Shown piece by piece: positions 5,502 through 58,989 of a DNA stretch of 64,000 nucleotides. A program made the position numbers and the translations under genes. The notes under the pieces are model-generated. The model made no database searches. It saw nothing but the letters and a program-made list of their open reading frames with translations, and had not been told where the DNA came from. Every line of letters starts with the position of its first letter. Position 1 is the stretch's first letter. The DNA comes from Anaerolineae bacterium. GTDB taxonomy: Bacteria; Chloroflexota; Anaerolineae; Aggregatilineales; Phototrophicaceae. The stretch covers positions 63,118 through 127,117 of the forward strand of contig JAVQVU010000007.1 of NCBI GenBank assembly GCA_033579375.1, written 5' to 3'.

Positions 5502-5529
5502 TTGTGGATTTTCCAACCTGCGCTATACT
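5502..5529 (+). promoter_or_regulatory. putative sigma70-type promoter for the LysM/PT-rich gene
   Basis: TTGTGG (5502-5507), 16-nt spacer, TATACT (5524-5529), about 40 nt upstream of the ATG at 5568. Confidence 0.3.
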
Positions 5530-5567
5530 TCACAGCAGATACAGCCGCGCAACGGTCAGGAGTGGAC

Positions 5568-7916: not shown

Positions 7917-9325
7917 AACATCGCTTTATCATCCTGATGATCCTCTGCTTGAGCTTGATTGGGAGGTCGAACAGTCAAGCCACGCCCACCCCTGCTCCGC
8001 TCGGCTTGACAATCCACGTCCTCCAGCGTGGCGAAACGCTGGAAGGCCTAGCCCAGGCTTATGGCCTGAGCCTGGCTGATCTGCTGCGCCTCAACAGTTT
8101 GAGTGACGCGCAGTCTGTCCAGGTGGGTCAACGTTTGCTCGTGCCAGCTCAGATCATCGCTGACAGCCCCACCCAGCCCTACATCGTCCAGCCCGGTGAG
8201 ACGTTGGACAGCCTCGCCAACCGTTTCGGCTTGGCCATAGCAGAGCTGATCCAAATCAATGGCATCACCGATCCCAACCAAGTCTACAGCGGCCAGGTGA
8301 TCCAGCTACCCAGCAGCGTTCAGCTGCCTGATGAAGTCACCAACGCAGGCACGCCCATCCTGCACACTGTTCAGCGCGGCGAGACGCTCTTCCAGATTGC
8401 CCTGGCCTACGGCTCAACTGTCAGCGACTTGGTGAACGCCAATAGCATTGCCGACCCGACTCGTATCTTCGTTGGGCAACAGCTCATCATCCCTGTCCAG
8501 ACGCGCGGCAGCGCGGCACAGGCTCTGCCCGCCCCGCTCACCAGTCTGCAAGTCGTCCCGCTGGCTTTCGTTGAAGGCGAGACGGGAGTGCTGCGCTTCA
8601 GCACCAGCCAGCCTACGCAGATCAGCGGCACATTCCTAGAGCGCGAGCTACGCATCATCAGCGATGACGGCCTTCAGCACCTTGCTATCATCGGCGTGCC
8701 GCTGCTGACACCAGCGGGCATTTATCGTGTCTCGCTCCGCCTAGCTTCAAATAGCACAACAATCCCTTTCGCCTTCAACCTGCGCGTGCTAAGTGGCAGC
8801 TACGCCACCAGCAACTTGAACCTGTCACAGGAACAAATGGCCCTGCTTGCGCCAGCCGTTGAAGAATTCGAGCTTGGACTACTCACTAGAGTCACCACAC
8901 CGTTCAACATTCGGCGTCTATACACGGCGCCCTTCAGCCTGCCGGCGGCGGCAGCCATGAACGCGCCTTTCGGCACGCGCCGCTCCTACAACGGTGGCGA
9001 AGTCAACCGCATCCACAATGGCGCCGACTTCGCCAGCGCGCCAGGCGCTCCTGTCTATGCTGCTGCTGCTGGTCGCGTCGTCCTGGCTGATTTGCTCAAC
9101 ATACGTGGCAATACCATCGTCCTCGATCACGGCTGGGGGGTATACAGCGTCTACGCCCATCTCAGCAGCATGAGCGTACAGCTCGGTGACAGTGTGCGCG
9201 TAGGACAGATCATCGGCGCTGCCGGCGCAACGGGCCGCGTCACAGGCCCACATTTGCATTGGGAAGTGTGGGTCAATGGAGTCTCGGTTAATCCTTTGCA
9301 ATGGACACATCAAACGATCCCTTGA
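7913..9325 (+). CDS. LysM-domain M23 family metallopeptidase
   Basis: TTG start and signal peptide. Three LysM segments are present (HVLQRGETLEGLAQAYG, YIVQPGETLDSLANRFG, HTVQRGETLFQIALAYG). C-terminal M23 motifs HNGADFA and GPHLHWEVWV are present. Confidence 0.85.
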   Translation: MKHRFIILMILCLSLIGRSNSQATPTPAPLGLTIHVLQRGETLEGLAQAYGLSLADLLRLNSLSDAQSVQVGQRLLVPAQIIADSPTQPYIVQPGETLDSLANRFGLAIAELIQINGITDPNQVYSGQVIQLPSSVQLPDEVTNAGTPILHTVQRGETLFQIALAYGSTVSDLVNANSIADPTRIFVGQQLIIPVQTRGSAAQALPAPLTSLQVVPLAFVEGETGVLRFSTSQPTQISGTFLERELRIISDDGLQHLAIIGVPLLTPAGIYRVSLRLASNSTTIPFAFNLRVLSGSYATSNLNLSQEQMALLAPAVEEFELGLLTRVTTPFNIRRLYTAPFSLPAAAAMNAPFGTRRSYNGGEVNRIHNGADFASAPGAPVYAAAAGRVVLADLLNIRGNTIVLDHGWGVYSVYAHLSSMSVQLGDSVRVGQIIGAAGATGRVTGPHLHWEVWVNGVSVNPLQWTHQTIP

Positions 9326-9779: not shown

Positions 9780-10973
9780 TTAACGATTTTTGTCCGACCT
9801 TTGCCTGGCGCGCCACTGACGCCATAGACGACCTGGTGAGAAACGTCGCCAAAGTTGGCGTAACCCGCGCTGCCAGCGCACCAGGCGCGCGCGCCAGCGC
9901 GCCAATGTGTATTCCAGGACGCGCCGCTGCTTGACCAGGGTCGGCGCTTGCTTTAGGCGAGCGGGGATACCCCAGCGCAGCACCAACGCTGCCCAAGCCA
10001 GGCCGCCGCCGAAGCCTACCATCACCAGGTGATCGCCCTCTTTCACGCGCCCCTGTTCGATGGCTTCACACAGGGCTATTGGGATAGAGGCTGCCGAGGT
10101 GTTGCCATACTTGTCGACGTTGCTCATGAAGCGCGACTCGTCCAGCCTGAGCTTCTTGGCAACGCTAGCGATAATGCGCTGGTTCGCCTGATGCGGCACG
10201 ATGAGACTCACGTCGTCTAGCGTCAGGCCAGCCTCTTCCACCGCTTGACGAATGCTTTCATCGACGACGCGCGTGGCAAATTTGAAGACTTCGCTGCCCG
10301 CCATGTACATGCGGTTGATCCTGTGGCCCTGTGCATCGCGCACGTTGTGCGTGGGGATCAACAGCACATCACAGCCTGCCCCATCAGAGCGCAAGACGCT
10401 AGATAGTACACCACCTTCGTCTTCGCCTGCGCTCAGGACGACAGCCCCTGCCCCATCGCCGAAAAGAATGCACGTCCCGCGATCTTGCCAATCTAGTACG
10501 CGGCTCATTGTCTCTGCGCCGATCACCAGCACATTTTGCGCGCTGCCGCTGCGAATGGCTTGCGTTGCCACGTCCAGGGCGTAGACGAAGCCGCTGCACG
10601 CTGCGCTCAGATCAAAAGCGCCTGCCCGCGTCGCCCCAAGCCAGTCTTGCACCAGGCTGGCAGTGCTGGGGAAGACGTGTTCAGGGGTAGAGGTCGCCAC
10701 GATGATGAGGTCAAGTTCGCTGGCCAGCATGTTGGCCACCTCCAGCGCTGCTAGCGCTGCTTTGTGGGCTAGCGTCGCCGTCGATTCGCTTTCGTTGGCA
10801 ATGCGCCGCTCACGAATCCCGGTACGATCGCGGATCCATTCGTCACTAGTCTCCACCAGCGCAGCCAGATCATCGTTGGTCATAACTCCAGACGGTACAG
10901 CCATGCCCCAACCGACGATATGGGCCGAGAGGCCCGTGCTGCGCCAAGCAGAGGGGCGTTTAGGCATAGCCAT
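9780..10973 (-). CDS. fabH: 3-oxoacyl-ACP synthase III with a 63-aa Arg/Trp-rich C-terminal extension
   Basis: Motifs DLSAACSGFVYAL (active Cys), VPHQANQRI and GNTSAASIP. The core ends at about ...AALVLRW (about 334 aa) and is followed by a basic tail. The gene overlaps the fabF stop by 14 nt. Confidence 0.9.
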   Translation of the reverse strand: MAMPKRPSAWRSTGLSAHIVGWGMAVPSGVMTNDDLAALVETSDEWIRDRTGIRERRIANESESTATLAHKAALAALEVANMLASELDLIIVATSTPEHVFPSTASLVQDWLGATRAGAFDLSAACSGFVYALDVATQAIRSGSAQNVLVIGAETMSRVLDWQDRGTCILFGDGAGAVVLSAGEDEGGVLSSVLRSDGAGCDVLLIPTHNVRDAQGHRINRMYMAGSEVFKFATRVVDESIRQAVEEAGLTLDDVSLIVPHQANQRIIASVAKKLRLDESRFMSNVDKYGNTSAASIPIALCEAIEQGRVKEGDHLVMVGFGGGLAWAALVLRWGIPARLKQAPTLVKQRRVLEYTLARWRARLVRWQRGLRQLWRRFSPGRLWRQWRARQRSDKNR

Positions 10974-22361: not shown

Positions 22362-23174
22362 TCAAGCGTCTAGCCAGCGCATGGGAGCGCCACTCCCCCC
22401 ACGCCGCACCATGACAATCTCAGCCAAAATGCTCAGGGCAATTTCGCGCGGCGACTCGGCCTCCAACTCCAAGCCGATTGGGGCATGCACGCGCCTGATT
22501 TGCTCCTCGCTCATGCCCACCTCGCGTAGGGCTTTCACCGTCAAGGCCCAGCGGCGCTTGCTGCCGATCAGGCCCACGTAGCGCGCCGACGTGCTAGCCA
22601 GAGCAGGCAAAAGCTGCACATCGACAGGCAGACCGCGCGTCAGGCAGGCGATGTAGGTGTTGCTCGTAATCGTCGTATGCTGTGGAACTTCGTGCGGCTT
22701 GCAGATGACGTAGCCATCTAGGCCAGGCGCATAGCCTGGATTGGCGAATTCGGGCCGATCATCGCATAGCACTACGCGAAAGCCTAGCCATTTGCCCAGT
22801 TCGGCAACGGCCTTGCCAGTGTGTCCCCCACCAATCACCAGCAACGTGGGGGCAACCTCCAACGGCTCGATGAAGATGCGGGCCGTGCCGCCGCAAACGC
22901 CGGGGTCGCCGTCTTCCAGATTATTCAGAGTGTAAGTCTCAAGGCGAGCTTGGCCATCCACCAGCGCTGCCAGCGCCGCCTGGATGACGCGCGCTTCCAT
23001 TGAGCCACCACCTACTGTGCCGACGATACGGCCATCGGCGTAGACCAGCATTTTGCTGCCCACGTGGCGCGGCATACTCCCCTGAGTCTCGATCACTGTC
23101 GCCAAAGCAGCGCTCTGACCACGCTGGTGGACTTCCAGCAGCGCGGCGTAGACAGCTTCATGGTCATCGGCCAA
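22362..23174 (-). CDS. xdhC: XdhC/CoxI-family molybdenum hydroxylase maturation protein
   Basis: N-terminal block ALATVIETQGSMPRHVGSKMLV...GTVGGG, plus the Rossmann-like segment LLVIGGGHTGKAV. Confidence 0.85.
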   Translation of the reverse strand: MADDHEAVYAALLEVHQRGQSAALATVIETQGSMPRHVGSKMLVYADGRIVGTVGGGSMEARVIQAALAALVDGQARLETYTLNNLEDGDPGVCGGTARIFIEPLEVAPTLLVIGGGHTGKAVAELGKWLGFRVVLCDDRPEFANPGYAPGLDGYVICKPHEVPQHTTITSNTYIACLTRGLPVDVQLLPALASTSARYVGLIGSKRRWALTVKALREVGMSEEQIRRVHAPIGLELEAESPREIALSILAEIVMVRRGGSGAPMRWLDA

Positions 23175-25629
23175 TGCGAACCTCTCCTAAGAACAAGCGC
23201 CCGTCTTCAGAAGTGGCTAAAGTATGGCTGTTAGCTATGAGTCTTTTATGAGAACGCGCATCGTAGAAACCGATAGCCAGGCGGTACAGGCCAGGTGGCA
23301 ACGAGTCGATGTCTAGCTCGGTCACCTCTGACCAGGCCGAGGGAAGAAGGTTACCCAGGGCCGCTCCACCCTGTAAATAGCCATCCCATTGAACAGGCGG
23401 CGGCTTATCCTGAGCAGCAGACGGGTAGAGATGAATGAAGCCGCGCACATCGCCGTGTGCGTTACCATTCGACCACCAATCCAGCGACACTTGCAAGCCG
23501 TCTGCCAGACGTTGGCTAGCCCAGCCTCGCAGGACGAGCGCGCCGTCTTGAAAGCTGGCTAGCTCTGCGGAGGCGCGTGGCAGCGGCGCGAGCGGACTAC
23601 CGTCCTCTGTCTGGATGAGCCAATGCCAGCCTGCTTCGTAGCGCGCCCCACCCAAGCCGACCTCCAAGCGCTCCGTCACTCTGTCAGCAGGGATGAGGGT
23701 GGTCAACTCTAGCCATTGGCCGCCTATGCCAGACAGAATGCGCGTCTCCAGCGCTTCACCGTTGACTTGTATCAACAGATCGCCAGGCGCGTCGGCGTGC
23801 AGGCGCGTCACTAGGGCTGCTTCTTGGCCTGGCCTAGCCTGCATGATGAACGTCTCACCGTTCACAGGACGCACGCCATCCAGCAAAGGACGATTGTTCA
23901 GCGGCAGTTGGCGCGGCAGAGTGAGAAAGCCAGCGCTGCCATCGACGCGCCGCCATTGGTAGCCGTGAGCCTGCTCGTCACGCCAATCTGCTACGTTCAG
24001 GCTATCTACGATTCGCGCCTGCTCGCTCAGCCAGCGCAAGGCCGCGCGCGGCTCATGCCTGTCTTGCGCCGCTAGCGCCGACCAGTCAGGCCGATAGATG
24101 GCCTGTCGCGGGCCAGCCAACGCCACGTTGTAAACAGGCAAAGCTTGGCCTACGTCAAAGACTGCCAGTGGCTCAGCGTACAAAGCCGTATTGGCCAGCA
24201 GGCCCAAGCCGTAGCCATGCCCCTGCCCATAGCTGGCGATGAAGTTGGGCTGTTCGCGCAGCAGCAGTTCCGCCACGCTGCCCACACCATTGCGCCAGTA
24301 CTGGGCCGCTTGTGGCGTGGTCAGGCCCACCATGTCCAGAGTCGTCCGTCCGCCCAGGTAGCGAATCAGCCCTACGTCGTGGACGGCAACGACGCTATCC
24401 TCTGGTGTATTCTCAGCGACCCAACGAGCCATCGCGTAGGGCTGGGCGCGCACATAAGCCACGTTGGCAGCGTAGAAGACCAGGTACTGGCTCGTCAGCA
24501 GCAGGCAAGCTACCAGGCTGATTGCAGCGTACAAACGGGCGGCGTGACGGCCCACGCGCAGGGCATAACGCGGCACATCAGCCAGAGCGAAGGCTACTAG
24601 CGGTACGAACAGGGCCACCAGCGGCATTTGATAGCGCTTGAAGTGCCAAAAAGCGTTATCCAGCGTGGCCACCGCTCCGCTGAGCAGCAGCGCCCAAACT
24701 AGCACCAACAGCGCCACCGGCCGACCCTGTGACCGCGTCCACAAGCTGCCCCAACCTACCAGGGCCACCCCCAACAGCAACGGCGGCAGCTGACCGCCGT
24801 CGCGGCCTTCGCCGCTCAGGAACTCTGCCCAAGTGCGCAGGAAATTCTCAGCGATTCGACTGGCTATGTCGAGCGGATCGGCGTAGGGGCTGGCCAAAAT
24901 AGACTTAGCTTGGTTGCCACTGGCCACCCAAGAACCTGTCAAAGCTGTATTCACCAGAGGCTGGAGAGCCAGCGCTGCCAAAGGCAGCAGAGCCAAGCTC
25001 TGGGCGCGCCAGCCTACCCCGCGCAAGCGCAGCAGCAGGGCTATCCCCGCTGAAGCCGCCAAAAAACCGCCTTCAGGCCGCATGAGCGCCAACAGCACGC
25101 CAAACAGGGCGAAAGAGGCGACGCGCTCCTGAGCATAGGCCCACAGCGTCCACAGGGTCAGGGCCATCACCAGGGTCGTCTCCATGCCACTGAAGGCGTG
25201 CCAGCTCGTCGCGCCCAGCAGCACAAACAGGAAGGGAGCAACGCTCTGCACCCAAGCAGGCGCGCCCCACCACAGCGCTAAGCAGCGCACCACCCAAGCT
25301 GAAGCCAGCAGTCCACCAACTCCAACGAGTATGGCCCACAGTCCCAGGCTGAGGCCTTGCCAACCCAGCGTATGACCCAGAGCCAGCAGCAACGGATACA
25401 AGAAGCTGGTCGCGCCACTGGTGGGAGGCTGTCCAGGATTGTAAACGTTGAACTGGCCCAGGGCCGCCTGGCGCGCATACTGGAGATGAATGTAGGCGTC
25501 GTCCAGAGGCAGCAAGCCCTGGCCATCGCCTGCCGACACATACAGGACGGCCAGCAGACCTGTTAAGCTGCACAGCCCCGCCCAGGTCAGCAATGCCGTA
25601 CAGCGCACGGACGGCGTCTGCGTCGTCAA
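23164..25629 (-). CDS. large polytopic membrane protein, GT-C-type glycosyltransferase-like, with a roughly 400-aa extracytoplasmic C-terminal domain
   Basis: More than 10 predicted TM helices in the N-terminal half. An acidic first-loop motif LPLDDAYIHLQYA is present. The family assignment is tentative. The gene overlaps the xdhC start by 11 nt. Confidence 0.5.
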   Translation of the reverse strand: MTTQTPSVRCTALLTWAGLCSLTGLLAVLYVSAGDGQGLLPLDDAYIHLQYARQAALGQFNVYNPGQPPTSGATSFLYPLLLALGHTLGWQGLSLGLWAILVGVGGLLASAWVVRCLALWWGAPAWVQSVAPFLFVLLGATSWHAFSGMETTLVMALTLWTLWAYAQERVASFALFGVLLALMRPEGGFLAASAGIALLLRLRGVGWRAQSLALLPLAALALQPLVNTALTGSWVASGNQAKSILASPYADPLDIASRIAENFLRTWAEFLSGEGRDGGQLPPLLLGVALVGWGSLWTRSQGRPVALLVLVWALLLSGAVATLDNAFWHFKRYQMPLVALFVPLVAFALADVPRYALRVGRHAARLYAAISLVACLLLTSQYLVFYAANVAYVRAQPYAMARWVAENTPEDSVVAVHDVGLIRYLGGRTTLDMVGLTTPQAAQYWRNGVGSVAELLLREQPNFIASYGQGHGYGLGLLANTALYAEPLAVFDVGQALPVYNVALAGPRQAIYRPDWSALAAQDRHEPRAALRWLSEQARIVDSLNVADWRDEQAHGYQWRRVDGSAGFLTLPRQLPLNNRPLLDGVRPVNGETFIMQARPGQEAALVTRLHADAPGDLLIQVNGEALETRILSGIGGQWLELTTLIPADRVTERLEVGLGGARYEAGWHWLIQTEDGSPLAPLPRASAELASFQDGALVLRGWASQRLADGLQVSLDWWSNGNAHGDVRGFIHLYPSAAQDKPPPVQWDGYLQGGAALGNLLPSAWSEVTELDIDSLPPGLYRLAIGFYDARSHKRLIANSHTLATSEDGRLFLGEVRIGR

Positions 25630-41306: not shown

Positions 41307-44300
41307 ATGTTCATCCTTCATGGTTCATTCAACCCTGACCACCACCATTTCCTAATTTGGGCCGAGACGGATAACCCCCAAATGTCCAAGCGCAGCAAGA
41401 AGCGCAAGATCGGGCCATCCCCCCAAGAACGTCCCAAGCACCCACACCACCCTTTCGGAGCTTCGCAAGCGCAGCTGATGGCATGGCGCGAGTCGTGCAT
41501 TCCGCACCTGAAGGCTTCGCCTTCGGGCGCCATCGTCTTCTTGCCAGGCAGCGCCGACATGCCCCACCCCTCCATCGATTGGCAAGAGACGGGTCTTCAG
41601 CACCATCCCTTGTCTGAAGCGCCTGAACTCTACCATTGGCACGTCTTCGGCCTAGCCCTGCCTCTCAGTGCAGCCGTCGAATTCCTGCTTACTCCCAACA
41701 AATCTCTGGGGCGCGACCTACTCTTCTGGCGCATGGCCATTCTAGAGAGCCTAGCCTTCATCGCAGGCCAGCAAATCTTGCCTGGCCTGGTGCGCGACGG
41801 GATGTTCCTGCGAGCAGATTGGCTGATCGCCTCTGAAGCTGCCGAACGGATGGAAGCATTAGCTCAGCAAATGCCGCCCTTCTGCCGTGCTTACGCCACC
41901 AGTGAGGAGCTTCTGCCCAGCGCCAACCATATAATGAACGAGTTCACCCATGCGATGGCTCGCATGATTGTGCGCAGCGCTGCTTCTCAACTGCGGCTGC
42001 CAGGTGGTCGTTCGCACGGGCAAATCTGGCTCTACGCCCTGACGACGTCCGACACCCGTCTCAAGCTCCCTCCCAACCAGGTCGAAGATTTCTATACCAC
42101 CTGGCAAACCTGGAGTCAGCAGAACGACGCTGCTGGCAACCGTCACTTTCGCATCGCCTTGCGCCTGAACCCTCCAGAAGGCGACGACCAAGAATGGACG
42201 CTGGAGTACCTGCTGCAATCAGTGGAAAATCCCGCGCTGATGATCACGGCGGCCCAAGTTTGGCGCGGCCAGAACGACATTCTGCGCCAGCGCTTCGACC
42301 AAGCTCAGGAACGACTGCTACGCGGCTTAGCGTTTGCAGGACGCCTCTTCCCACCCATCCTGGAGAGCCTGCGCGACAAGACGCCGCAGCAAGCTGTTTT
42401 CGACACCGCTCAGGCAGCGGCTTTCCTGCAAGAAGCTGTCCCTTACCTCCAGGCTATCGGTTATCGTGTACTGCTGCCTGAGTCCTGGTCGAGCAAGAAG
42501 ACGCGCTTGTGCGCAACAGCGCGTATCAAGCCACGGAATGGCAAGGGTCTTCTCAATCTGTCCAGCATCGTAGATTTCGAATACGAAATTTCGCTGGGCG
42601 GCGAGATCATTGAACAGGAAGAATTCATGCGTCTGGCGGCGCTCAAGCAGCCGCTGGTGCGCGTGCGTGGGCAGTGGGTGCTGTTGGACGCTGAGCAGGC
42701 GGCTGCTGCGCTGAACATCATCCTGCACGGCAGAGGACAAATGTCCTTCGTCGATGCTCTGCGCTTGGGCCTAGACGGAGGTGAAGCGCACGGCCTGTCT
42801 GTCGAGAAGGTTGAAGCCGAGGGTTGGCTGAGCAACTTGTTCGTCAGCTTGCGAAACCCTGAAGTGATCGTGCTGCCCAGGCCGCCACAGGGCTTGCGTG
42901 CCGATATGCGCCCCTACCAGGTGCGCGGCTTCGCTTGGTTGCTATTCTTGCGGCGCTTCGGCCTGGGAGCTTGCTTAGCAGATGATATGGGTCTGGGAAA
43001 GACCTTGCAGGCCATTGCCTACCTTCAGCAGCTCAAGAACGACAATGCCAAGATTGCGCCGGCGCTGGTGGTCTGTCCAACCTCGGTCGTGGGTAATTGG
43101 CTGCGAGAGCTTCAACGCTTTGCCCCTGGGCTGCGAGCAGTTATTCATCAGGGAGCAGGGCGCAGCAGCGGCGAAGATTTTGCCAGACTGGCTCAGAGCG
43201 CCGATGTGGTGCTGACCAGCTACCCATTGCTAGCCCGCGATCAGGACAGCATTGTGCCAATTCAGTGGTCGGCTGTAATTTTGGATGAAGCCCAGAACAT
43301 CAAGAACAGCAGCACCAAACAAGCTCAGGCCGCCCATGAGTTGAAGGCCGAACATCGTATCGCCATGACTGGCACGCCGATTGAGAATCGCCTGAGCGAG
43401 TTGTGGTCGATCTTCCACTTCATCAACCCCAATTACCTGGGCAGCGAACGCAGCTTCCGCCAGAATTTCGCCTCACCCATCGAGCGCGCCGACGATGTTC
43501 ATGCCGCTCAGCGTCTCAAGCGTCTGACCGCACCCTTCATCCTGCGCCGCCTCAAGACCGACCCGACCATCATCAGTGATCTGCCCGAAAAGCTGGAAAT
43601 GATCGTCCACGTCAACCTGACGCAAGAGCAGGCGACACTGTACGAAGCTGTCGTTCGGCAGTCGCTGGAACTCATCAAGGAAGCTGAGGAAAAAGGCAAC
43701 GCCATGAGTCGACGCGGCCTAGTGTTGTCTTTGCTCACCCAGCTCAAGCAGGTATGCAACCATCCCGCCCACTTCATGAAGGACGGCAGCCCATTAGCAG
43801 GACGCAGCGGCAAGCTAGAACGCCTGACAGAAATGCTGGAAGAGGTCTTTGCAGAAGGCGACAAAGCCCTCGTCTTCACACAGTTTGCAGAGATGGGCGA
43901 ACTGTTGTGCCAGCACCTAGAAGCCAGCCTGGGCGAAAAGCCGCTTTGGTTGCATGGTGGCACGAAGGTCGAAGAGCGCGAAGACCTCATTCGTCGTTTC
44001 CAAGCGCCATATGGTCCACGTCTGTTCATCCTATCGCTCAAAGTTGGTGGCGTGGGCCTCAATCTCACTCAGGCCAACCACGTCTTCCACTTCGACCGCT
44101 GGTGGAATCCTGCTGTCGAAAATCAGGCAACCGACCGTGCTTATCGTATCGGCCAAATGCGCCGTGTACAGGTACACAAATTCGTAGCCATCGGCACGCT
44201 AGAGGAGCGCATTGACGCCATGATTGAGAGCAAGAAGGCCCTGGCTGAGCGTATCGTCAGCGTCGACGAAAGTTGGTTGACGGAACTCAGCACTGACGAT

Positions 44301-44333
44301 CTGCACGAATTGGTGGCCCTGCGCCCCTCTTGA
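41307..44333 (+). CDS. SNF2-family helicase/ATPase with a long N-terminal domain
   Basis: Motifs DDMGLGKT (I), LDEAQNIKN (II), MTGTPIENR (III), LKVGGVGLNLT and QATDRAYRIGQ (VI). The roughly 520-aa N-terminal region has no motif I recognise. Confidence 0.9.
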   Translation: MFILHGSFNPDHHHFLIWAETDNPQMSKRSKKRKIGPSPQERPKHPHHPFGASQAQLMAWRESCIPHLKASPSGAIVFLPGSADMPHPSIDWQETGLQHHPLSEAPELYHWHVFGLALPLSAAVEFLLTPNKSLGRDLLFWRMAILESLAFIAGQQILPGLVRDGMFLRADWLIASEAAERMEALAQQMPPFCRAYATSEELLPSANHIMNEFTHAMARMIVRSAASQLRLPGGRSHGQIWLYALTTSDTRLKLPPNQVEDFYTTWQTWSQQNDAAGNRHFRIALRLNPPEGDDQEWTLEYLLQSVENPALMITAAQVWRGQNDILRQRFDQAQERLLRGLAFAGRLFPPILESLRDKTPQQAVFDTAQAAAFLQEAVPYLQAIGYRVLLPESWSSKKTRLCATARIKPRNGKGLLNLSSIVDFEYEISLGGEIIEQEEFMRLAALKQPLVRVRGQWVLLDAEQAAAALNIILHGRGQMSFVDALRLGLDGGEAHGLSVEKVEAEGWLSNLFVSLRNPEVIVLPRPPQGLRADMRPYQVRGFAWLLFLRRFGLGACLADDMGLGKTLQAIAYLQQLKNDNAKIAPALVVCPTSVVGNWLRELQRFAPGLRAVIHQGAGRSSGEDFARLAQSADVVLTSYPLLARDQDSIVPIQWSAVILDEAQNIKNSSTKQAQAAHELKAEHRIAMTGTPIENRLSELWSIFHFINPNYLGSERSFRQNFASPIERADDVHAAQRLKRLTAPFILRRLKTDPTIISDLPEKLEMIVHVNLTQEQATLYEAVVRQSLELIKEAEEKGNAMSRRGLVLSLLTQLKQVCNHPAHFMKDGSPLAGRSGKLERLTEMLEEVFAEGDKALVFTQFAEMGELLCQHLEASLGEKPLWLHGGTKVEEREDLIRRFQAPYGPRLFILSLKVGGVGLNLTQANHVFHFDRWWNPAVENQATDRAYRIGQMRRVQVHKFVAIGTLEERIDAMIESKKALAERIVSVDESWLTELSTDDLHELVALRPS

Positions 44334-44356
44334 ACGCTCTGAAGGAGACCTGAAGC

Positions 44357-45337
44357 ATGGCCAACGCTCCCAAAACGCCATCGAAGCGCCCTAAGCCGGT
44401 CAGCGGTCATCGCAACAAGGCGCGCCCCTACCGTATCCCGCGCGTGCAGCCTGCACGACGCAGTGCTCGCGACTCACTTCAAGCAGGCATCGAATCCCAC
44501 CATGACGAGACGTATAGTCCGCCGCGCCGAGCCGATGGCCTCAAGAGTCGTACGGAACATGGCGCTTTCGCTGAGAACTGGTGGGCCAAACGCTGGATTA
44601 ACGTTCTAGAGAGCTATGGCCTGGGAACGCGCCTCCAGCGTGGGCAAGAGTACGCTCGCAAGGGTCAGGTTCTCAGCTTGACGATTGAGGTCGGACGTGT
44701 GCGTGCCAAAGTGCAGGGGTCGCGGCCCAAACCCTATCAAGTCCTGATTGAGGTCAAACCGCTGACCGATGAAGAATGGGAACGCGCCCTAGACGCCATC
44801 AGCGAGCAGGCTATCTTCACCGCCCAGCTGCTGGACGGCACTATGCCCCAGGAGATTGAGAGCGCTTTTGAACAAGCTAACGTTGGCCTCTTCCCTGACC
44901 ATGTGCGCGATATAATGACGGAGTGTAACTGCCCAGACACGGCCAACCCCTGCAAGCACATCGCGGCTGTCTACTACCTGCTGGGCGAACATTTCGACCA
45001 GGATCCCTTCCTGATCTTCGCTATGCGCGGCAAAACCCGCCAGCAGGTCATCGAAGCGCTGCGTCAGCGCCGCGCAGCCGCCACCCTGGCTGAAGCCAGC
45101 ACTCAAGAAGCGCCCCTTGTCCCTGGCGGCAGCGTGCCAATTCGTCAACTGTTGGACAGCTTTTGGGGACAGGAGCTGAACTGGTCGCCAGCACCTATCC
45201 AACCTCCTGTGCGCCCTATGCCGCTCATGCGTCATTTAGGGCCAGCACCAGGCGATACCCAGGAATACTTCGAAAACCTGTATCAGGCCATCACCGCCGT
45301 CTGCCTGAAGATGATCCGCAACGGGGAAGACGACTAA
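44357..45337 (+). CDS. SWIM zinc-finger protein
   Basis: CNCPDTANPCKHIAAV fits the CxCx(n)CxH pattern. The gene starts 23 nt downstream of the SNF2 gene. Confidence 0.8.
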   Translation: MANAPKTPSKRPKPVSGHRNKARPYRIPRVQPARRSARDSLQAGIESHHDETYSPPRRADGLKSRTEHGAFAENWWAKRWINVLESYGLGTRLQRGQEYARKGQVLSLTIEVGRVRAKVQGSRPKPYQVLIEVKPLTDEEWERALDAISEQAIFTAQLLDGTMPQEIESAFEQANVGLFPDHVRDIMTECNCPDTANPCKHIAAVYYLLGEHFDQDPFLIFAMRGKTRQQVIEALRQRRAAATLAEASTQEAPLVPGGSVPIRQLLDSFWGQELNWSPAPIQPPVRPMPLMRHLGPAPGDTQEYFENLYQAITAVCLKMIRNGEDD

Positions 45338-52305: not shown

Positions 52306-55300
52306 TTACGGATCGACGACCTGGATGTCGGTGAGCCACCAGCTCACCCGATAGTCGAAGTTTGCGCCAGCCGTGTTGTTGGGGTGGACGCTGGCCGTCT
52401 CTTCGGAGAGGCGATCAATGCGGAAGCGCAGCAGCAACGGCACTGAGCCAGGCCCAGCGTACGCCGACAGGTCGTGAGTACGCAGCTGCCAGTCGCCCAT
52501 GTCAGGGGTGTAGGTTGTGCCGCTGATGCGCGGAGAGCTGAAATTGCCTTGTGTCATGCTGAAGCTGATGCGGTTAGGCTGGCCGCCAGCGAAGTAGTCG
52601 AGCTGCAAGACGTGGTGGCCAGGCGGCAGGGTACGGGTGACCGTATGCGTATTCGTACCCTGGAATTCCCAGTCGTCGATTAGCAGACAGCTCGTGCGTT
52701 GCCAGACGGCGCTGGTATCGCCGCGCGTATGGTTGACTTGACCGTTGTTCGGGCCACCGCTGAAGATGTACGTGCCAACAGGATTGTTGTTGTCGCGCCA
52801 CGCGCAGCCTGGTGTGTAGTTGATCCACAGACGGAAGCCATCGTCGCCAGAGACCGTGAACTGATAGGTCGTGTTCACCTGGCTTGGATCAATGAAGATG
52901 CTCTTGAGCCAGCGCACGCTGTAGTTGCTGCTGTTGATCGGCGAGAAAGGATTGGTACTCGACCAGTCGAAGTTCAAGCCAGATTGCAAGCCATCATTAC
53001 GATAACCATTGACGCTGTTGAACGTCGTAATACCAGTCGTTGCTGTCGCGTTCACCGCTAAATTAGGCGTGCCTGTCGGCCTCCAGCCAGCAGACTGCGT
53101 CGGCGCGGTATTCGAGTTATCTGGGAGTGGCGTGTACGCCTTGTAGCCACCCGTCACGCTGAAGTCCAGGCTCGTGTTGTTCCAGTAGTAGCCGTGCCAG
53201 GGGCTAGTAAAGATGCTGGCCGGACGCAGCGCCGTCGTACTGATCGGCCTACCTGACAAGAAGTCCGTCGTCCAGGTGAAGCCGCCATCGACCGATACTT
53301 CAACCTGAACCGCCCCGCCCAACTCGTAGTAGGTATAGTAGTTGAGGACGGGCGCGACGGCCTGCGACAGATCGAGGGCGCTGTTGAGCATCATCGAGTA
53401 GCTGGCGCGTGCCTCTGCGGGGCGCTGCTCGCTGGCCAAGCGACCAGAGCCGACAGGTTGAGCCGCCGTGAACGAGAAGCTGAACGAACCGAGGGAGAGC
53501 TGGACGGAGGCATCGCCGCTGTTTTCGTAGTATTCCATGACGAAGGTATACTGCGTAAAGGCTTCAATGCGCGCCGAGCTGACCGTCGTGGTGCGGGCCT
53601 GATCCTGCCAGTTGTTGACGATGTTCCAGGGCGGGTTGCTGTAGGCCGGCGGATCATCAGGCAGGGCTGGCGGCATGGGCGAGCCATTCGTCTTGAAGTA
53701 GCGCAGGCGCACGCCATCATCCGCGCTGGTGATGAAGCTGTAGCGGCCAGGATTGATGCCGCTGACGGGCGTCGTCAGCGTCCAGCGGTAGGCGAAACGG
53801 TCGGTAATGCGCTCGCCATCGCTGCGGCGCGGGCCGCTGCTGCCCCAGTTCTCGCGAATTTCGGTCACAACACCAGTGTCCCAGCGGTTGGCATTCGTGA
53901 AGTTGTTACCCGACAGAGTGCCGTCTAGCGCGCGGCCAATGCAGACGTTGGTAGCCAAGCTACCGCAGCTCAGCGAGACGCGGTTGGAGCCGCTCGTACC
54001 CCAGTTCCAAATGCTGTACGTCCAGGTGCTGTTCAAGCTGCTCGGACCGCCGCCGCTGCCTCTGAAGACTGCTGGCGTGAGACCCCAATGGCCTTCGCGC
54101 ATCCAGTTGAGGGTATTGCGCGCAGCATCGAAGAAAGTCGTCGTGCCAGTCACCTTGCCAATGCGGATGGTGTTTGGATTGTAGAGCGTCACCTGAACGC
54201 CGTCGATGTACCAACCATCGCGGCGTGCGCCACCGTCCAAAGCATCGGCGATGAAGCGGATACGAATGCGCTGACCATCACGCGTTGTGGTGCGCGCATA
54301 GGGGCTGAGGTCGATCTGTTGGCGCGTCCAGGCATAGTTGCGGCTGTTGGTCGCCTGCCAGACCGTCGTCCATGGCCCCCAGCCCAACTGGCGCTCGTAG
54401 CACTGGCGCATATTGGGGTCGACCACGCTGTTAATCGTGCAACTGATGGGTGCAGGATCTTCAACCGAGATTTGCACCTGGAAGTAATCGGCGTTGCCTG
54501 CGAAGTGGCGCGACCAGAAGTATAAAATGGGACGATCCGTGTTCATCGTGCCGCGCAAGTCGATAATGGTGCGCAGTTGCAGCACATTGAACGTATCCAA
54601 GCGTAGGTCGCCGTTGTTGCCCATCATTGGGCTGGGAATGCTGGCGTTGATGCTGGGCGCGCGGTTGTTCAGATCAGTCGGGACAGTGGACGCCACGTGG
54701 AAGGAATACAGGCCATCGCGCTGCTCCCAGGTGATTGCTTCCCAGTCGCCACCCATCGACCACAGGTTGGGAAACAGAGCAGCGTTGTCGGGGTCTAGGA
54801 ACTCTGTGCCATTGCCCAACGTGTTCGCCGTGTTGTAACGGTTGCGATAGGGCGTGCCGGCAATGCTGTTGCGTGTCTGGCCCGTCGTCCACAAGGCATG
54901 GCTCAGCTCATCGCGCTCTGCAATGCGGATGTTGTCCAAGAAGACACCTTCGTTGCGCGCCGCGCCGTTATTGACCGTCATGCGGAAGCGCAGCATGATG
55001 TCGTCATCAGTGCGGTCGGCGTTGGTACGTGCGTTGGGCGGCAGAGCGTTGAAGATAGGACGCAGATCGACTTCGACCTCTTCCCAGCCAATGCTGAAAC
55101 GCGCGCGATCGCCGTTGGCAGGGATGTTGTTGGCCACTGGCGAGCTGCTGCCCGTGATTGGATTGCCCTGGGCAACGCGCATACCGTCGGCATAAGCCCA
55201 CAAGCCACGCCACTGTGTGCTTGGCTCGCTGCGTAGCTTCCATTCGACTGCCAGCGTCACGCCATTGGAGAACAAGCGCTGGTGCTGGAAGGTCAACACA

Positions 55301-57945
55301 GGATCATTGAGCGGCGTGAGCGGCGTCTGGCACAGCGACGAAGGAACGAGATTGCAGCTGGGCGAACGCGGATTCTGCGGCGTATCCAGGAACAGGTCGA
55401 TGGCGTTCTTCAGCTCAAGGATGGCCGTGCTGGGCGAGAGGTACTGGCCAGTGGGCGTATCCGTGTAAGAGAAACCTGTTGTGTTGGGCAGGGGACGATG
55501 ACCACCCTCCACGCGCCCCCACGTGCCAATGGGAATCCAATTGGTCAGCAGGTTGTTCTCGTTCTCTACGTCGTCCAAGAACGGTAGATCGGTGAAGCGC
55601 AGGCGGTCAGCGCGCTCTAGACGAATTTGGTCAATCCACCAACCCGGCGTATTCCAGCTCTCATAGTTGCGATGGACGAACATAGCGAAGCGGACGCGCA
55701 CTGGCTGAGCAAAGGGCGTGTCGTTGGCGTTGCGCAGACGGATGGTGACGCGCTCCATGATGGGCAGCTGGCTGCGCGTCGTGTTGTTGCGATTCACCAG
55801 CACGCCATCGGCGAAGGTCGTCCAGGTGGGGTTAAGATTGGTGAACGGATCGGTCGTGTACTGGACTTCCAGGCCCACGAAGCGGCTCACGTCGTAGGAG
55901 TGGTAGAAGGTGAGGATGGGGTCGCCCTGGTCGCCCTCTTCGTCAGTTGCGCCGCGCGGGTCGGCCACGTCAATGAAGCCATTCCACTCAATCGTGTGAG
56001 CGCGCAGGTTGGTCGTGTCGAGCTGGCCTGGTCGGCTCATGTTGTTGTCAGAGAAACGGTCGTCGTAGAAGCTGTGCGTTGTGCGGTTGGGGCTTTCGTG
56101 GAAGCTCGTGCCGCTGCCAAAGGTGCGCTCTGTCGTCAGCTGCCAGTTGCCGCTGGTGACGAAGTCCCTGAGCTGATCGGGGCTGTCTAGATTCCAGGTC
56201 TGGGCTGTGTAGTAAGTCTGACGCTGGACATTGTCAATCCGCATGGAGTCGATATACCAATGGTGGTTACCGCTCGTGCCTTCATTGCGCTCAATGACGA
56301 AGCGGAACGTCAAGCGGCGGCTCTGGCCTGGCAAAAGGTAGGGCGACAGATCAATCGTGTTGTACGTCCAGTTGAAGTTCCACGTGTTGCCAGTGCGCAG
56401 CGGGATGGTCTGCCAATTCAGACGGCTACGATCCGCTGGGGAACTGATGAGTGTACCAGTGTTAGCAGGATCGTAGTTGGCAACTTGCAGATAGGCGCGC
56501 GCACCTGGCGAAGAACCTAAGTTCCAAACATCCCAGAAGGTAAGAGCAGGGTTGGTTATGGTCGGCGGAATCTCAACCGCGCCGCGCAGTTCTAGGTGGC
56601 AACGGTTGCCAGCAGGGATACTGTCCCAGATACCGGCAGCGATGTACTCCTTCCATCCATGATCCAACGTGTCGGTGCGAGCATCTGCGAAGTTTCTCCA
56701 GCGGCAGTCTATTATACCGCTGGTAGGCAGACCAGCTGAGTTGACGCGCGTGTCATCAGGGTTTGTGCTGCGGTTGGGCGTAGCGTCAAAGATTTCCAGC
56801 CGCACTCGCGCAGTGTTCACGCGCTCCGCAAAATCGAGTTGCAAGGTGTACTGACCCGGCGGCACAGTGCGGGTGAAGTGGATGCTACGGCTGACTGGCA
56901 AATCTTGGCTCGTCCAGTTCTCCGCCAGCAAACACTCTGTGGGAATCTGATTGCCAGGCCCTACAGGATTGTTCGGGTCGAACCCCAAGCCCAGATTGTT
57001 GTACAGTTGCCAATGATTGTTGTTTGTGGTACGGTTAGCAGGCGTTGTGTAGGGGTTTCCACCAAAGCCTGCGCTGTCCAAGCCACTGTAGAGAGGCCCG
57101 CCGCTAGTCACCCTGACCGACGTATTGTCGCGGCGTACGGCGTTAGAACAGTTGCCGGGGCCGCCGTTGATGACGCTGGGGTTGCCGCCGTAAATGCCGC
57201 CCAAAATCCACAAGCGCACTGCATCCTCAACGTTAGATAGCTGGAAGCGCAGCGTCGTGTTGCCCATCTCTGGAGTGATGGTGATGGTGCGCCGCCAAAC
57301 CACGCCGAAGTTATCGGTCTGCCAACCAGCAATCGGCGAATTCGTACCCCAGTTGAAATCGATAATGCCCGTGAAGGCCGGATCAATCTCCTGATTGTAG
57401 AGACTGTGGGCCGCAGCTCCTGTGAGTTGCGTGTTGGGATAGTACAGCCCGTACCAATCCGCAGAACCTAAGAACAGCGCGTTGTCGACGCGCCAATGCC
57501 TGACTGTCTCTGGGTTGCCTGTGTCTGTCCAGGGCGCCATGTGGATGATATCTTGCGGCGTCGGCGACGGTGACGGCGTGAACGTCGGCGTCCAGGTCGG
57601 AGAGGGTGTAATGGGCGTGTTCGTGGGCGAGGGACCTGATGTCGGTGGCAGGGTAGGCGGTGCGAGCGTGCGCGTGGCCAGCGGAGTCTCTTGAGGCGTC
57701 TGCGTTGCTACCCAAGTCACTGTCAGCCAGAATTGCTCCACGCCAGGCAGTTGAGCAATCGTGCGCGGGTCTGCGCCAACTAAATTGACGACCGTATTGC
57801 TGAAGACATTGCCAATTGCTGGCCCAGTAGCAGCCAGAGCAAAGCCAAAGGCCAGGATCGCCAGCACAACAATCAGCGTGTATTCTACCAGCGACTGACC
57901 GCTCTCCTGGGGACGTGGGTGTTTTAGAGGCGTCGTTTCGGCCAT
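52306..57945 (-). CDS. giant secreted/surface protein (1,879 aa): Flp/TadE-like prepilin-type N-terminus, PT linker, three PA14-like domains, repeated jelly-roll modules
   Basis: The ATG at 57945 is preceded by GAGGG. The N-terminus is MAETTPLKHPRPQESGQSLVEYTLIVVLAILAFGFAL. PA14-like blocks include YGLYYPNTQLTG...IDFNWG...DNFGVVWRR, FAYRWT...ADDGVRLRY and NYSVRWL...GDDGFRLWINY. The track ORF continues to 58293, but that part overlaps folD and is rejected. Confidence 0.8.
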   Translation of the reverse strand: MAETTPLKHPRPQESGQSLVEYTLIVVLAILAFGFALAATGPAIGNVFSNTVVNLVGADPRTIAQLPGVEQFWLTVTWVATQTPQETPLATRTLAPPTLPPTSGPSPTNTPITPSPTWTPTFTPSPSPTPQDIIHMAPWTDTGNPETVRHWRVDNALFLGSADWYGLYYPNTQLTGAAAHSLYNQEIDPAFTGIIDFNWGTNSPIAGWQTDNFGVVWRRTITITPEMGNTTLRFQLSNVEDAVRLWILGGIYGGNPSVINGGPGNCSNAVRRDNTSVRVTSGGPLYSGLDSAGFGGNPYTTPANRTTNNNHWQLYNNLGLGFDPNNPVGPGNQIPTECLLAENWTSQDLPVSRSIHFTRTVPPGQYTLQLDFAERVNTARVRLEIFDATPNRSTNPDDTRVNSAGLPTSGIIDCRWRNFADARTDTLDHGWKEYIAAGIWDSIPAGNRCHLELRGAVEIPPTITNPALTFWDVWNLGSSPGARAYLQVANYDPANTGTLISSPADRSRLNWQTIPLRTGNTWNFNWTYNTIDLSPYLLPGQSRRLTFRFVIERNEGTSGNHHWYIDSMRIDNVQRQTYYTAQTWNLDSPDQLRDFVTSGNWQLTTERTFGSGTSFHESPNRTTHSFYDDRFSDNNMSRPGQLDTTNLRAHTIEWNGFIDVADPRGATDEEGDQGDPILTFYHSYDVSRFVGLEVQYTTDPFTNLNPTWTTFADGVLVNRNNTTRSQLPIMERVTIRLRNANDTPFAQPVRVRFAMFVHRNYESWNTPGWWIDQIRLERADRLRFTDLPFLDDVENENNLLTNWIPIGTWGRVEGGHRPLPNTTGFSYTDTPTGQYLSPSTAILELKNAIDLFLDTPQNPRSPSCNLVPSSLCQTPLTPLNDPVLTFQHQRLFSNGVTLAVEWKLRSEPSTQWRGLWAYADGMRVAQGNPITGSSSPVANNIPANGDRARFSIGWEEVEVDLRPIFNALPPNARTNADRTDDDIMLRFRMTVNNGAARNEGVFLDNIRIAERDELSHALWTTGQTRNSIAGTPYRNRYNTANTLGNGTEFLDPDNAALFPNLWSMGGDWEAITWEQRDGLYSFHVASTVPTDLNNRAPSINASIPSPMMGNNGDLRLDTFNVLQLRTIIDLRGTMNTDRPILYFWSRHFAGNADYFQVQISVEDPAPISCTINSVVDPNMRQCYERQLGWGPWTTVWQATNSRNYAWTRQQIDLSPYARTTTRDGQRIRIRFIADALDGGARRDGWYIDGVQVTLYNPNTIRIGKVTGTTTFFDAARNTLNWMREGHWGLTPAVFRGSGGGPSSLNSTWTYSIWNWGTSGSNRVSLSCGSLATNVCIGRALDGTLSGNNFTNANRWDTGVVTEIRENWGSSGPRRSDGERITDRFAYRWTLTTPVSGINPGRYSFITSADDGVRLRYFKTNGSPMPPALPDDPPAYSNPPWNIVNNWQDQARTTTVSSARIEAFTQYTFVMEYYENSGDASVQLSLGSFSFSFTAAQPVGSGRLASEQRPAEARASYSMMLNSALDLSQAVAPVLNYYTYYELGGAVQVEVSVDGGFTWTTDFLSGRPISTTALRPASIFTSPWHGYYWNNTSLDFSVTGGYKAYTPLPDNSNTAPTQSAGWRPTGTPNLAVNATATTGITTFNSVNGYRNDGLQSGLNFDWSSTNPFSPINSSNYSVRWLKSIFIDPSQVNTTYQFTVSGDDGFRLWINYTPGCAWRDNNNPVGTYIFSGGPNNGQVNHTRGDTSAVWQRTSCLLIDDWEFQGTNTHTVTRTLPPGHHVLQLDYFAGGQPNRISFSMTQGNFSSPRISGTTYTPDMGDWQLRTHDLSAYAGPGSVPLLLRFRIDRLSEETASVHPNNTAGANFDYRVSWWLTDIQVVDP

Positions 57946-58101
57946 AATATTCCCTCGAAAGTATGACGGACTCTTCCGTACCCCTATGGTACTAGAGATT
58001 GGGCCGAGACGGGATTTGTAGATTGTTGTTTCTTGTTCAAATGCGTTGACAAAAAGACGACCACAAGGCGAAACCATTGAACATCGCTGAGAGAAGGTAA
58101 G

Positions 58102-58989
58102 ATGAGCGCGCAGATACTCAACGGTCAAGACATAGCAGACCGTCTCCAGGCCCAAATTGCCCATGAGGTAGAAGCTTTCAAAGGACGCTACGGAATTGTG
58201 CCAGGGCTTGGCGTGGTCATGGCTGGCGACAACCCTGCTTCGGCGCAATACGTGCGCATGAAGCGCAAAGCCTGCGAGAAAGTTGGCATTCATTCAGTGA
58301 CCCATTTGGTCAATTCTAGCACGCCGCAGGACGAGGTACTCAGCTTGGTGCGCGCGCTGAACGATGATCCACTCATTCACGGCGTCCTGGTTCAGCTCCC
58401 CTTACCTGCGCACATTGACGAAGTTGCCGTCTTGTCAGCGGTCGGTTTGGAGAAGGACGTGGACGGCTTTCACCCTCTCAACATCGGCGCGCTGGCCATG
58501 AAGGGCCGCGAGCCGAGCTTTGTGCCGGCGACTCCTAGCGGCTGCATGGTGCTGCTGCGAGAAGCAGGCGTCGAGCTGGATGGTGCAAACGCCGTCATTC
58601 TGGGTCGCAGCAACATCGTCGGCCTGCCTATGACCCTGCTGCTCATGAAGGCCAACGCCACTGTGACCGTCTGCCACAGTCGTACTCGTGGCCTGGCCGA
58701 CGTGGTACGCCGCGCTGACGTGCTGATCGCTGCCGTTGGGCGCGCCGAGATGGTGCGTGGAGACTGGATCAAGCACGGCGCCGTCGTGATCGACGTAGGG
58801 ACGAACAAGGTCGATGATCCTAGCAGTGATAAAGGCTACAAAATCGTGGGCGACGTGCATTTCCCCAGCGCAGTCGAAGTCGCCAGCGTCATCACCAAAG
58901 TCCCTGGCGGGGTCGGCCCGATGACGATCACCATGCTGCTCAGCAACACGCTCAAAGCTGCCAGACAGCACGTGGGCGAGAAAGTCTAG
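58102..58989 (+). CDS. folD: bifunctional methylenetetrahydrofolate dehydrogenase/cyclohydrolase
   Basis: Motifs GLGVVMAGDNPASAQYVRMKRKAC, GVLVQLPLP, VDGFHP, GRSNIVGLP and PGGVGPMT. Confidence 0.93.
   Translation: MSAQILNGQDIADRLQAQIAHEVEAFKGRYGIVPGLGVVMAGDNPASAQYVRMKRKACEKVGIHSVTHLVNSSTPQDEVLSLVRALNDDPLIHGVLVQLPLPAHIDEVAVLSAVGLEKDVDGFHPLNIGALAMKGREPSFVPATPSGCMVLLREAGVELDGANAVILGRSNIVGLPMTLLLMKANATVTVCHSRTRGLADVVRRADVLIAAVGRAEMVRGDWIKHGAVVIDVGTNKVDDPSSDKGYKIVGDVHFPSAVEVASVITKVPGGVGPMTITMLLSNTLKAARQHVGEKV

Follow-up and report, generated by a model that had tools for sequence, protein, structure and literature searches.

A 1,879-Residue Protein of Anaerolineae Joins a Flp-Type Pilin Module to an Array of PA14 and Jelly-Roll Domains

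The DNA analyzed here, referred to below as the window, is a 64,000-nucleotide stretch from an Anaerolineae bacterium of the Aggregatilineales (contig JAVQVU010000007.1, positions 63,118 to 127,117). Its minus strand contains an uninterrupted open reading frame (ORF), read from 57945 to 52306, whose product is 1,879 amino acids (aa) long. Analysis of this giant protein and its relatives showed an architecture in which a Flp pilin is followed by a second helix, a Pro/Thr tether of about 45 residues and an array of lectin-type beta-sandwich domains (about 1,750 residues) with conserved disulfide pairs. Within the filamentous Chloroflexota, one order has retained this fusion throughout. An initial annotation, made from the sequence alone, had located the ORF without stating its strand, had quoted the first 40 residues exactly as they read in the translation, and had proposed that a Flp-type prepilin N-terminus was carried by some 1,800 aa of PA14 and jelly-roll modules. 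This proposal was borne out by the comparison with genuine Flp pilins presented below. We give about even chances to the hypothesis that the giant is a modular Flp pilin that the Tad prepilin peptidase cleaves and that acts as a glycan-binding adhesin, with its Flp helix serving for display or as a tether.

A Flp-type pilin module at the N-terminus

The junction between the putative leader and the following helix reads G16|QSLVEY and is the sole match to the G-x4-EY motif in the entire window. Conservation at this site was scored in 179 full-length relatives ranging from 1,300 to 2,433 aa. The Gly at position -1 is present in 177 of them, while Gln+1, Glu+5 and Tyr+6 occur in all 179. The motif is thus retained on equally large proteins, a point left for verification by the initial annotation: 118 of the 120 best homologues have G-x4-EY near the N-terminus followed by ...ATGPAIGNVFSN, and no homologue was found that starts elsewhere or carries a Sec signal instead. 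A second group of residues (T40, G41, P42, N46, F48 and N50) is invariant or nearly so; these residues are common to the short Flp and lie outside the most hydrophobic stretch.

A BLASTP comparison aligned residues 12-55 of the window protein with residues 5-48 of a short Flp without gaps (57% identity, E 3e-11). When the N-termini of 28 giants were compared with 35 short Flps using hhalign, homology was detected with 99.3% probability (E 9.3e-21) over 45 columns corresponding to positions 4-48 of the 48-residue pilin. The end of the short pilin coincides exactly with the start of the extension found in the giant. Judged by sequence, the first 55 residues are homologous to the native 48-aa Flp of the lineage over its full length, predicted leader and cleavage motif included, and go beyond a mere signal. 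AlphaFold2 modelled residues 17-56 as one continuous helix. A search of PDB sequences with a profile of the giant N-termini (E ≤ 10) returned only two sequences, both of Tad pilins, namely 8U1K (PilA) and 8U2B/8UCR (Flp), in alignments that were weak (E 0.3-0.4) but in register with E5/Y6.

The window protein had no match in Pfam to the N-terminal hidden Markov models TadE (PF07811) or Tad (PF13400), to which true TadE/TadG proteins from a related contig (L141, see below) score at E 1e-11 to 1e-17. The N_methyl motif of modular type IV pilins (IPR012902/PF07963) did not reach its cut-off (8.9 bits against 21.2, E 1.5); apart from a weak match to DUF4244 (E 0.02), no other Pfam family scored in this region. 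Several giant homologues are named "Flp pilus assembly pilin Flp" by JGI. Other source names are "hypothetical", "PA14 domain-containing protein", or "Flp", the last from the N-terminus alone.

A second helix and linker lead to an array of PA14 and jelly-roll domains

Throughout the giant family, the pilin and the cargo are connected by the helix at residues 69-81 and a Pro/Thr-rich linker. The 81-aa N-terminal module produced 300 matches in 1.84 billion representative proteins, and those extending through the second helix (aa 80) were almost restricted to giants or fragments of giants. The linker had been recognized in the initial annotation, as had three PA14-like domains and at least five jelly-roll modules sharing a terminal signature. 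All of these features were recovered: AlphaFold2 predicts disorder for residues 82-122, one PA14 domain scores above the Pfam cut-off and two below it, and the five signature motifs lie where they had been placed, the first four modules being homologous to one another and the fifth being split around the third PA14 domain.

From the linker onward, the array consists of a PA14 domain, four MAM-like jelly rolls, a second PA14 domain and a fifth jelly roll, interrupted in this protein by the nested third PA14 domain. The nested copy (PA14c) matches PF07691 over residues 1658-1709 with 27.8 bits (cut-off 24) and the PDB sequence of RsgI3 (6qe7) with E 5.7e-8. PA14a and PA14b are sub-threshold in Pfam; all three copies are mutually homologous according to hhalign (98-100%). 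Since the fifth jelly roll is uninterrupted in about 72 of 121 relatives, PA14c is an insertion. Residues 1202-1254 match InhA-like_MAM (PF20773) with 17.6 bits, below the cut-off of 26.9; many homologues carry precomputed PF20773 matches. The core domain order is identical in all 121 family proteins compared, which differ solely in that a copy of PA14 may be added or absent.

Some members carry further domains. One subgroup (P0027-P0050, about 1,950-2,020 aa) has an additional F5/8 type C (discoidin) domain, which in P0027 and P0036 apparently occupies the roughly 150 aa that separate jelly rolls 3 and 4. In other members TSP3 or LamG-like domains are present, so that accessory lectin modules are gained while the core order stays fixed.

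AlphaFold2 models computed from 58-sequence alignments were obtained for residues 1-1011 (predicted local distance difference test score, pLDDT, 80.8; predicted template modelling score, pTM, 0.65) and 1012-1879 (pLDDT 84.9; pTM 0.77). Both are all-beta beyond the linker. Foldseek matched them to reelin repeats, MAM-containing meprin chains, the RsgI3 PA14 domain, the Epa and Cea1 PA14 adhesins, and glycosidases bearing carbohydrate-binding modules. Because these alignments span several domains, the matches cannot be assigned to single domains of the query. The Pfam and NCBIfam libraries were searched with the whole protein and with 300-aa slices, and only PA14 and the weak MAM families were matched. 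These searches revealed no catalytic domain and no SLH, LPXTG, PEP-CTERM or other wall or C-terminal anchor; the C-terminus is the last strand of the fifth jelly roll.

The protein contains 12 Cys residues arranged as six closely spaced pairs, four at invariant positions. Its Lys content is 0.4%, a value that within the window is as low only in the LysM proteins of the wall and in a small number of further proteins that are putatively exported. The Cys pairs and the scarcity of Lys fit a protein predicted to reside outside the cytoplasm. N-glycosylation sequons were not enriched beyond what composition predicts (z = 0.5). The low-Lys set of the window (0.1-0.5% Lys) is encoded at 5502-7535, 7913-9325, 2633-3349, 23164-25629 and 52306-57945: two of its members contain LysM repeats, accompanied in one case by an M23 peptidase domain, two are ORFs of 238 and 821 aa, and the fifth is the giant itself. 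The cytoplasmic enzymes of the window have 1.3-7% Lys. Exported proteins of the source organism may be recognizable by this near-absence of Lys.

Conservation and genomic setting of the giant gene

An exact-sequence look-up found no record of the window protein itself. Its homologues amounted to 235 matches, and the 120 listed span 1,429-2,208 aa. A scan limited to one genome per species yielded 78 loci, and relatives are encoded by no fewer than 157 stretches. Almost all of these bear the label Chloroflexota/Anaerolineae (Aggregatilineales, Phototrophicaceae/Phototrophicales, Ca. Flexifilum), two complete genomes among them: CP062983.1 (Phototrophicus methaneseepsis ZRK33, gene G4Y79_17715) and CP146238.1 (Aggregatilineales SYSU G02658). 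Three with other labels (Bacteroidetes, Pleurocapsa) are presumably mis-binned. Across 79 loci, the gene is preceded by a divergent folD in 68 and followed by gmk in 58, then by a gcvT-like gene in 55 and by ftsB/DivIC in 50. This arrangement persists down to 27% protein identity, which indicates that the giant gene is of old standing and has been passed on vertically at a housekeeping locus. The family is under strong purifying conservation.

In the window, the longest ORF that can be drawn mechanically reaches upstream to 58293 and would overlap the divergent folD gene (58102-58989). The ATG at 57945 was taken as the start codon because the sequence GAGGGA lies 6 nt upstream and because the N-termini of homologues begin at the equivalent Met. 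The codon usage of the gene is typical for a native gene and rather biased, with an effective number of codons of 41.1 (the fifth lowest among 46 genes) and a G+C content of 0.735 at third codon positions. A promoter scan of the intergenic region toward folD found no promoter. The strong terminator attributed to the gene in the initial annotation is indeed present: inspection by eye identified a perfect 10-bp GC-rich hairpin followed by five T residues at 52260-52230, a structure that an automatic terminator scan did not pick up. The next gene downstream, gmk, begins around 52151. The features of the gene and its product are collected in Table 1.

Table 1. Positions of the giant gene, its signals and the domains of its product within the window.
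Feature	Position	Strand	Basis
Whole giant Flp-pilin fusion gene, 1,879 codons plus stop	52306..57945	-	ORF reading, homologues, codon usage
Ribosome-binding site GAGGGA, 6 nt 5' of ATG	57951..57956	-	read from sequence
Leader peptide, aa 1-16, MAETTPLKHPRPQESG; polar, basic, Gly-1 at end; predicted prepilin-peptidase site G16|Q17	57898..57945	-	family conservation; disordered in model
Flp pilin module, aa 17-56, a single alpha-helix of 40 residues, QSLVEYTLIVVLAILAFGFALAATGPAIGNVFSNTVVNLV; invariant E5/Y6, GP..GN.FSN motif	57778..57897	-	AlphaFold2, BLASTP, hhalign
Second short helix, aa 69-81 (FWLTVTWVATQ), family-specific; F72/W73/T75/V76 invariant or nearly so	57703..57741	-	AlphaFold2, alignment
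Pro/Thr-rich linker, aa 82-131	57553..57702	-	composition; AlphaFold2 pLDDT <50 for aa 82-122
PA14-like domain a, aa 133-395; low-confidence inserted loop, conserved Cys266-Cys338	56761..57549	-	hhalign: PA14c 100% (E 1e-40), PA14b 98%; weak Pfam PA14; Foldseek RsgI3 6qe7
Jelly-roll module 1 (JR1), aa 399-572, ending HHWYIDSMRIDN	56230..56751	-	motif, AlphaFold2, hhalign 97-99.5% among JR1-JR4
Jelly-roll module 2 (JR2), aa 576-778, ending GWWIDQIRLER	55612..56220	-	motif, AlphaFold2, hhalign 97-99.5% among JR1-JR4
Jelly-roll module 3 (JR3), aa 789-1011, ending GVFLDNIRIAER	54913..55581	-	motif, AlphaFold2, hhalign 97-99.5% among JR1-JR4
Jelly-roll module 4 (JR4), aa 1015-1254, ending GWYIDGVQVTL	54184..54903	-	motif, AlphaFold2, hhalign 97-99.5%; sub-threshold InhA-like_MAM
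PA14-like domain b, aa 1258-1496	53458..54174	-	hhalign: PA14c 99%, PA14a 98%; AlphaFold2
Jelly-roll module 5, N-half, aa 1511-1591	53173..53415	-	hhalign 91.7% to first half of JR4
PA14 domain c, aa 1648-1801, nested within jelly roll 5	52543..53004	-	Pfam, PDB sequence match, Foldseek Epa/Cea1 A domains
Jelly-roll module 5, C-half, aa 1806-1879, ending WWLTDIQVVDP	52309..52530	-	hhalign 96% to last strands of JR4
Intrinsic terminator GAAGCCCCTC-AATTA-GAGGGGCTTC, then G-TTTTT; 45 nt past stop codon	52230..52260	-	read from sequence

Short Flp pilins and the Tad machinery

The 48-aa Flp to which the giant N-terminus corresponds belongs to a family with 7,531 matches in Anaerolineae (PF04964, named "Flp family type IVb pilin"), and the mean column identity over 35 cluster representatives is 94%. 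In the genomes inspected, the genes for these pilins are usually found among unrelated genes and far from tad genes, as exemplified by five loci (L080-L084) with a 48-aa flp at position 10001-10147 in each. In one of the 79 giant loci, and in that one only, short and giant Flp adjoin: in an Anaerolineae metagenome-assembled genome (L042), two tandem genes for 48/49-aa Flps (6592-6938) are embedded among the genes of a peptide ABC transporter and precede the giant gene by 3 kb. Another pair, the 48-aa Flp P0162 and the giant P0103, may come from the same genome, as suggested by the longest contig of 6,247,952 bp listed for both. One 418-aa protein (P0364) has four separate Flp-like stretches and is either a poly-Flp protein or the product of small flp genes merged by gene calling.

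A complete, canonical tad locus of the Chloroflexota type, headed by a flp gene of the 48-aa type, was found on a related metagenome contig (L141, 6093-16161), where it continues with tadE, tadE, tadG, rcpC, tadZ, tadA and tadB. At this locus, a 729-aa Kelch-repeat protein is encoded between tadG and rcpC, and TadZ has an N-terminal response-regulator receiver domain. The window itself contains no tad genes, in agreement with the initial annotation: Pfam searches with 40 ORFs detected only metabolic and housekeeping genes, and motif scans for the Walker A box of TadA-type ATPases and for A24 peptidases were negative. According to published surveys, tad genes are present in most Chloroflexota genomes (PMC7332563; PMC10746286). 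The supplements of a wastewater Chloroflexota paper and of two papers on P. methaneseepsis list no tad, pilus or locus-tag data.

Possible roles of the giant protein

In the hypothesis that we favour, the prepilin would be inserted by way of Sec so that its leader stays in the cell while its cargo ends up outside, and the Tad prepilin peptidase would cleave between G16 and Q17. The 40-residue helix with Glu5 and Tyr6 would then be taken by the Tad machinery into the Flp filament, probably as the first or an occasional subunit, placing the cargo at the tip or sparsely along the shaft. There the PA14 and jelly-roll array would bind glycans or surfaces, resulting in pilus-mediated adhesion of the filamentous Anaerolineae. 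In the Tad pilus of Caulobacter, Glu5 and Tyr6 create the core network of hydrogen bonds and the pilin's C-terminal end faces outward (PMC11067988); tethered cargo could hence project from the filament. Incorporation into a filament is favoured by the retention of both Glu5/Tyr6 and the outer GP..GN.FSN half as in polymerising Flp. The conservation of these motifs (Gly-1, Gln+1, Glu+5, Tyr+6 and the T40-N50 set) appears to exceed the needs of a plain membrane anchor.

Several points weigh against the modular-pilin hypothesis. Among the checks suggested with the initial annotation was a search with Flp and TadE models, and formally its outcome is negative, as the window protein does not match Flp_Fap (PF04964; cut-off 32.2 bits). 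The test is a weak one, since two genuine 48-aa Flps also fall under that cut-off (26.8 and 24.0 bits); six of eight other giant N-termini match Flp_Fap at E 2e-4 to 0.15, and we regard the profile-profile homology to genuine Flps as decisive. No motif of a TadA-type ATPase or A24 peptidase was found near the giant gene in the 79 loci (10 kb). Given that the short flp genes of the lineage are themselves mostly unlinked from tad loci, this absence is uninformative. When TadA of the L141 locus was used as a query, none of the best 120 matches (68-100% identity) led to a contig bearing a giant gene. Cleavage, assembly and ligand are all inferred. At about 190 kDa, the cargo far exceeds the modular pilins described so far, the largest of which has 860 aa (PMC8179133), and its passage through the cell wall may be difficult. 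Finally, the strict chromosomal position and the invariant domain order look more like those of a core envelope component than of an adaptable adhesin.

These last features would suit a Flp module that has no other role than that of class III signal and anchor, a possibility that we consider less likely than the modular pilin. After cleavage by the prepilin peptidase, the helix would stay in the cytoplasmic membrane and the Pro/Thr tether would lead the lectin-like array into or through the wall, forming a constitutive surface coat or a glycan-capture layer. Non-pilin proteins with class III signals are found in archaea and provide a precedent. Vertical inheritance, the fixed position between folD and gmk with the same core domain order in 121 of 121 proteins, the lack of linkage to tad genes and the very large size of the cargo (about 190 kDa) all agree with such a membrane stalk. 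The codon bias, among the strongest in the window, and the gene's own strong terminator are consistent with steady expression, and the pTM values of the AlphaFold2 models (0.65-0.77) suggest a rather rigid body. A "cell wall surface layer" has been described in P. methaneseepsis by electron microscopy (PMC8941918). On the other hand, a simple anchor leaves the invariant Glu5/Tyr6 pair and the GP..GN.FSN half, shared with polymerising Flp, unexplained. A tether of about 45 residues (≤ ~15 nm) would be short for the multilayered envelope of Chloroflexota, and neither SLH nor any other wall-binding domain was found in Pfam or NCBIfam searches. Both options put forward in the initial annotation, a tip or minor pilin and a pilin-signal-anchored adhesin, are possible.

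A bolder idea, to which we attach a rather low probability, is that Aggregatilineales have co-opted Flp/Tad as an archaeal-style route of surface assembly. The giant would then be a pilin-anchored, lectin-like subunit of the coat or sheath of the multicellular filament, a core rather than accessory component needed for filament integrity or cell-cell cohesion. This would account for the fixed housekeeping position and the invariant nine-domain order. If correct, it would represent the first case of a bacterial class III (Flp) signal building a cell-surface layer.

Ordinary secretion through Sec is improbable. It would require signal peptidase I to cut at the AxA-like site ALA38|A39 and free a soluble extracellular lectin-like protein. 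An AxA-compatible tripeptide does precede the TGP motif in 144 of 166 members, and the n-region is basic. However, the site is incompatible in the other 22 (ALI|A, AIQ|A, ALL|A), and the would-be h-region contains an invariant charged Glu. Moreover, the homology to Flp spans the putative cut site and goes on to residue 55, and conservation is higher at the Gly-1/Gln+1 prepilin site than at the AxA site. The ALA|A sequence (aa 36-39, window 57829-57840) overlaps the pilin module at the end of the hydrophobic helix, where the short Flp reads ILALLGP.

Merging of a small flp gene with a large downstream gene through a sequencing, assembly or gene-calling error can be dismissed, as the ORF is continuous and the same fusion recurs in 179 full-length proteins from independent assemblies, complete genomes included.

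Relation to known pilins and surface proteins

To our knowledge, Flp pilins are the smallest pilins, consisting of one helix without a globular domain, and we know of no account of how Tad pili gain binding specificity beyond their TadE/F/G tips. The giant shares with Flp/Fap pilins (PF04964), such as Caulobacter PilA (8U1K) and the Anaerolineae 48-aa Flp, the polar leader ending in Gly, the G|x4-E-Y motif and the single helix of about 40 residues. It differs from them in running about 1,820 residues further, the Flp pilins being 45-80 aa long and made of the helix only.

In its general plan, a pilin followed by a linker and a grafted functional module, the giant resembles the modular type IV pilins, examples of which are Streptococcus sanguinis PilB and PilC, bearing a vWA and a lectin module respectively, as well as CofB and ComZ (PMC8179133). 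These comprise more than 1,200 proteins of the IVa/b types, defined through IPR012902, with a largest member of 860 aa, and are established adhesins (Raynaud et al. 2021, PMC8179133). As in these proteins, the extra domains of the giant (PA14, jelly rolls) are not specific to pilus biology. The modular type IV pilins have a type IVa/b pilin with a globular domain and the IPR012902 motif and are encoded in pilus loci; in contrast, the carrier in the giant is a bare Flp helix, the cargo reaches about 1,750 aa and the gene lies among housekeeping genes.

Tad pili carry modular tip pilins of the TadG/KilN kind (PMC12075869). TadE/TadF/TadG and the minor tip pilins KilL/M/N (PMC12075869) are, as proposed for the giant, substrates of the Tad prepilin peptidase whose variable C-terminal domains are exposed at the pilus end. 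Their N-termini are of the TadE/TadG type (PF07811, PF13400) and their genes lie in tad/tip clusters, as at L141, whereas the N-terminus of the giant is of the Flp type. As for the cargo, matches in sequence and fold relate it to PA14 lectin or adhesin domains (yeast Epa, Flo and Cea1; Clostridium RsgI3) and, with a sub-threshold Pfam score, to MAM and InhA-like MAM jelly rolls. The giant family has a domain order and a domain number of its own, and ligand specificity cannot be transferred from these PA14 and MAM relatives. A parallel for the membrane-stalk and coat possibilities is offered by the Sulfolobus "bindosome", in which a pilin-type signal puts large sugar-binding proteins, substrate-binding in nature, at the cell surface. 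That system belongs to another domain of life, uses the peptidase PibD, involves smaller proteins and has a dedicated assembly locus.

A full-text literature search found no paper describing the giant Flp-fusion family. If the modular-pilin hypothesis is correct, the family would, as far as we could find, have no described forerunner among Flp-class modular pilins; in size it is more than double the largest modular pilin in the published set (PMC8179133). The family spans an order of environmentally abundant filamentous bacteria, including the Flexifilum of activated sludge and the cultured Phototrophicus methaneseepsis. Its conservation across the order makes it a candidate for the means by which filaments attach to flocs, to polysaccharides or to each other. 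It also offers a test of the cargo size that the machinery of a type IV filament is able to cope with when the envelope is monoderm-like.

Other genes in the window

Three further segments of the window deserve mention. The 821-aa ORF of the low-Lys set (23164-25629, minus strand, 0.5% Lys) lies between an xdhC-like gene and F420-related genes and has no Pfam family at E ≤ 1e-4. The adjacent segment 25669-30379 (minus strand) is a coenzyme F420 cluster encoding a luciferase-like monooxygenase, CofC, CofD, a nitroreductase-like protein, F420:gamma-glutamyl ligase and an F420-dependent NADP oxidoreductase. On the plus strand, the interval 41307-45337 encodes an SNF2-family helicase with a DUF3670 domain (1,008 aa), directly followed by a SWIM zinc-finger protein (326 aa).

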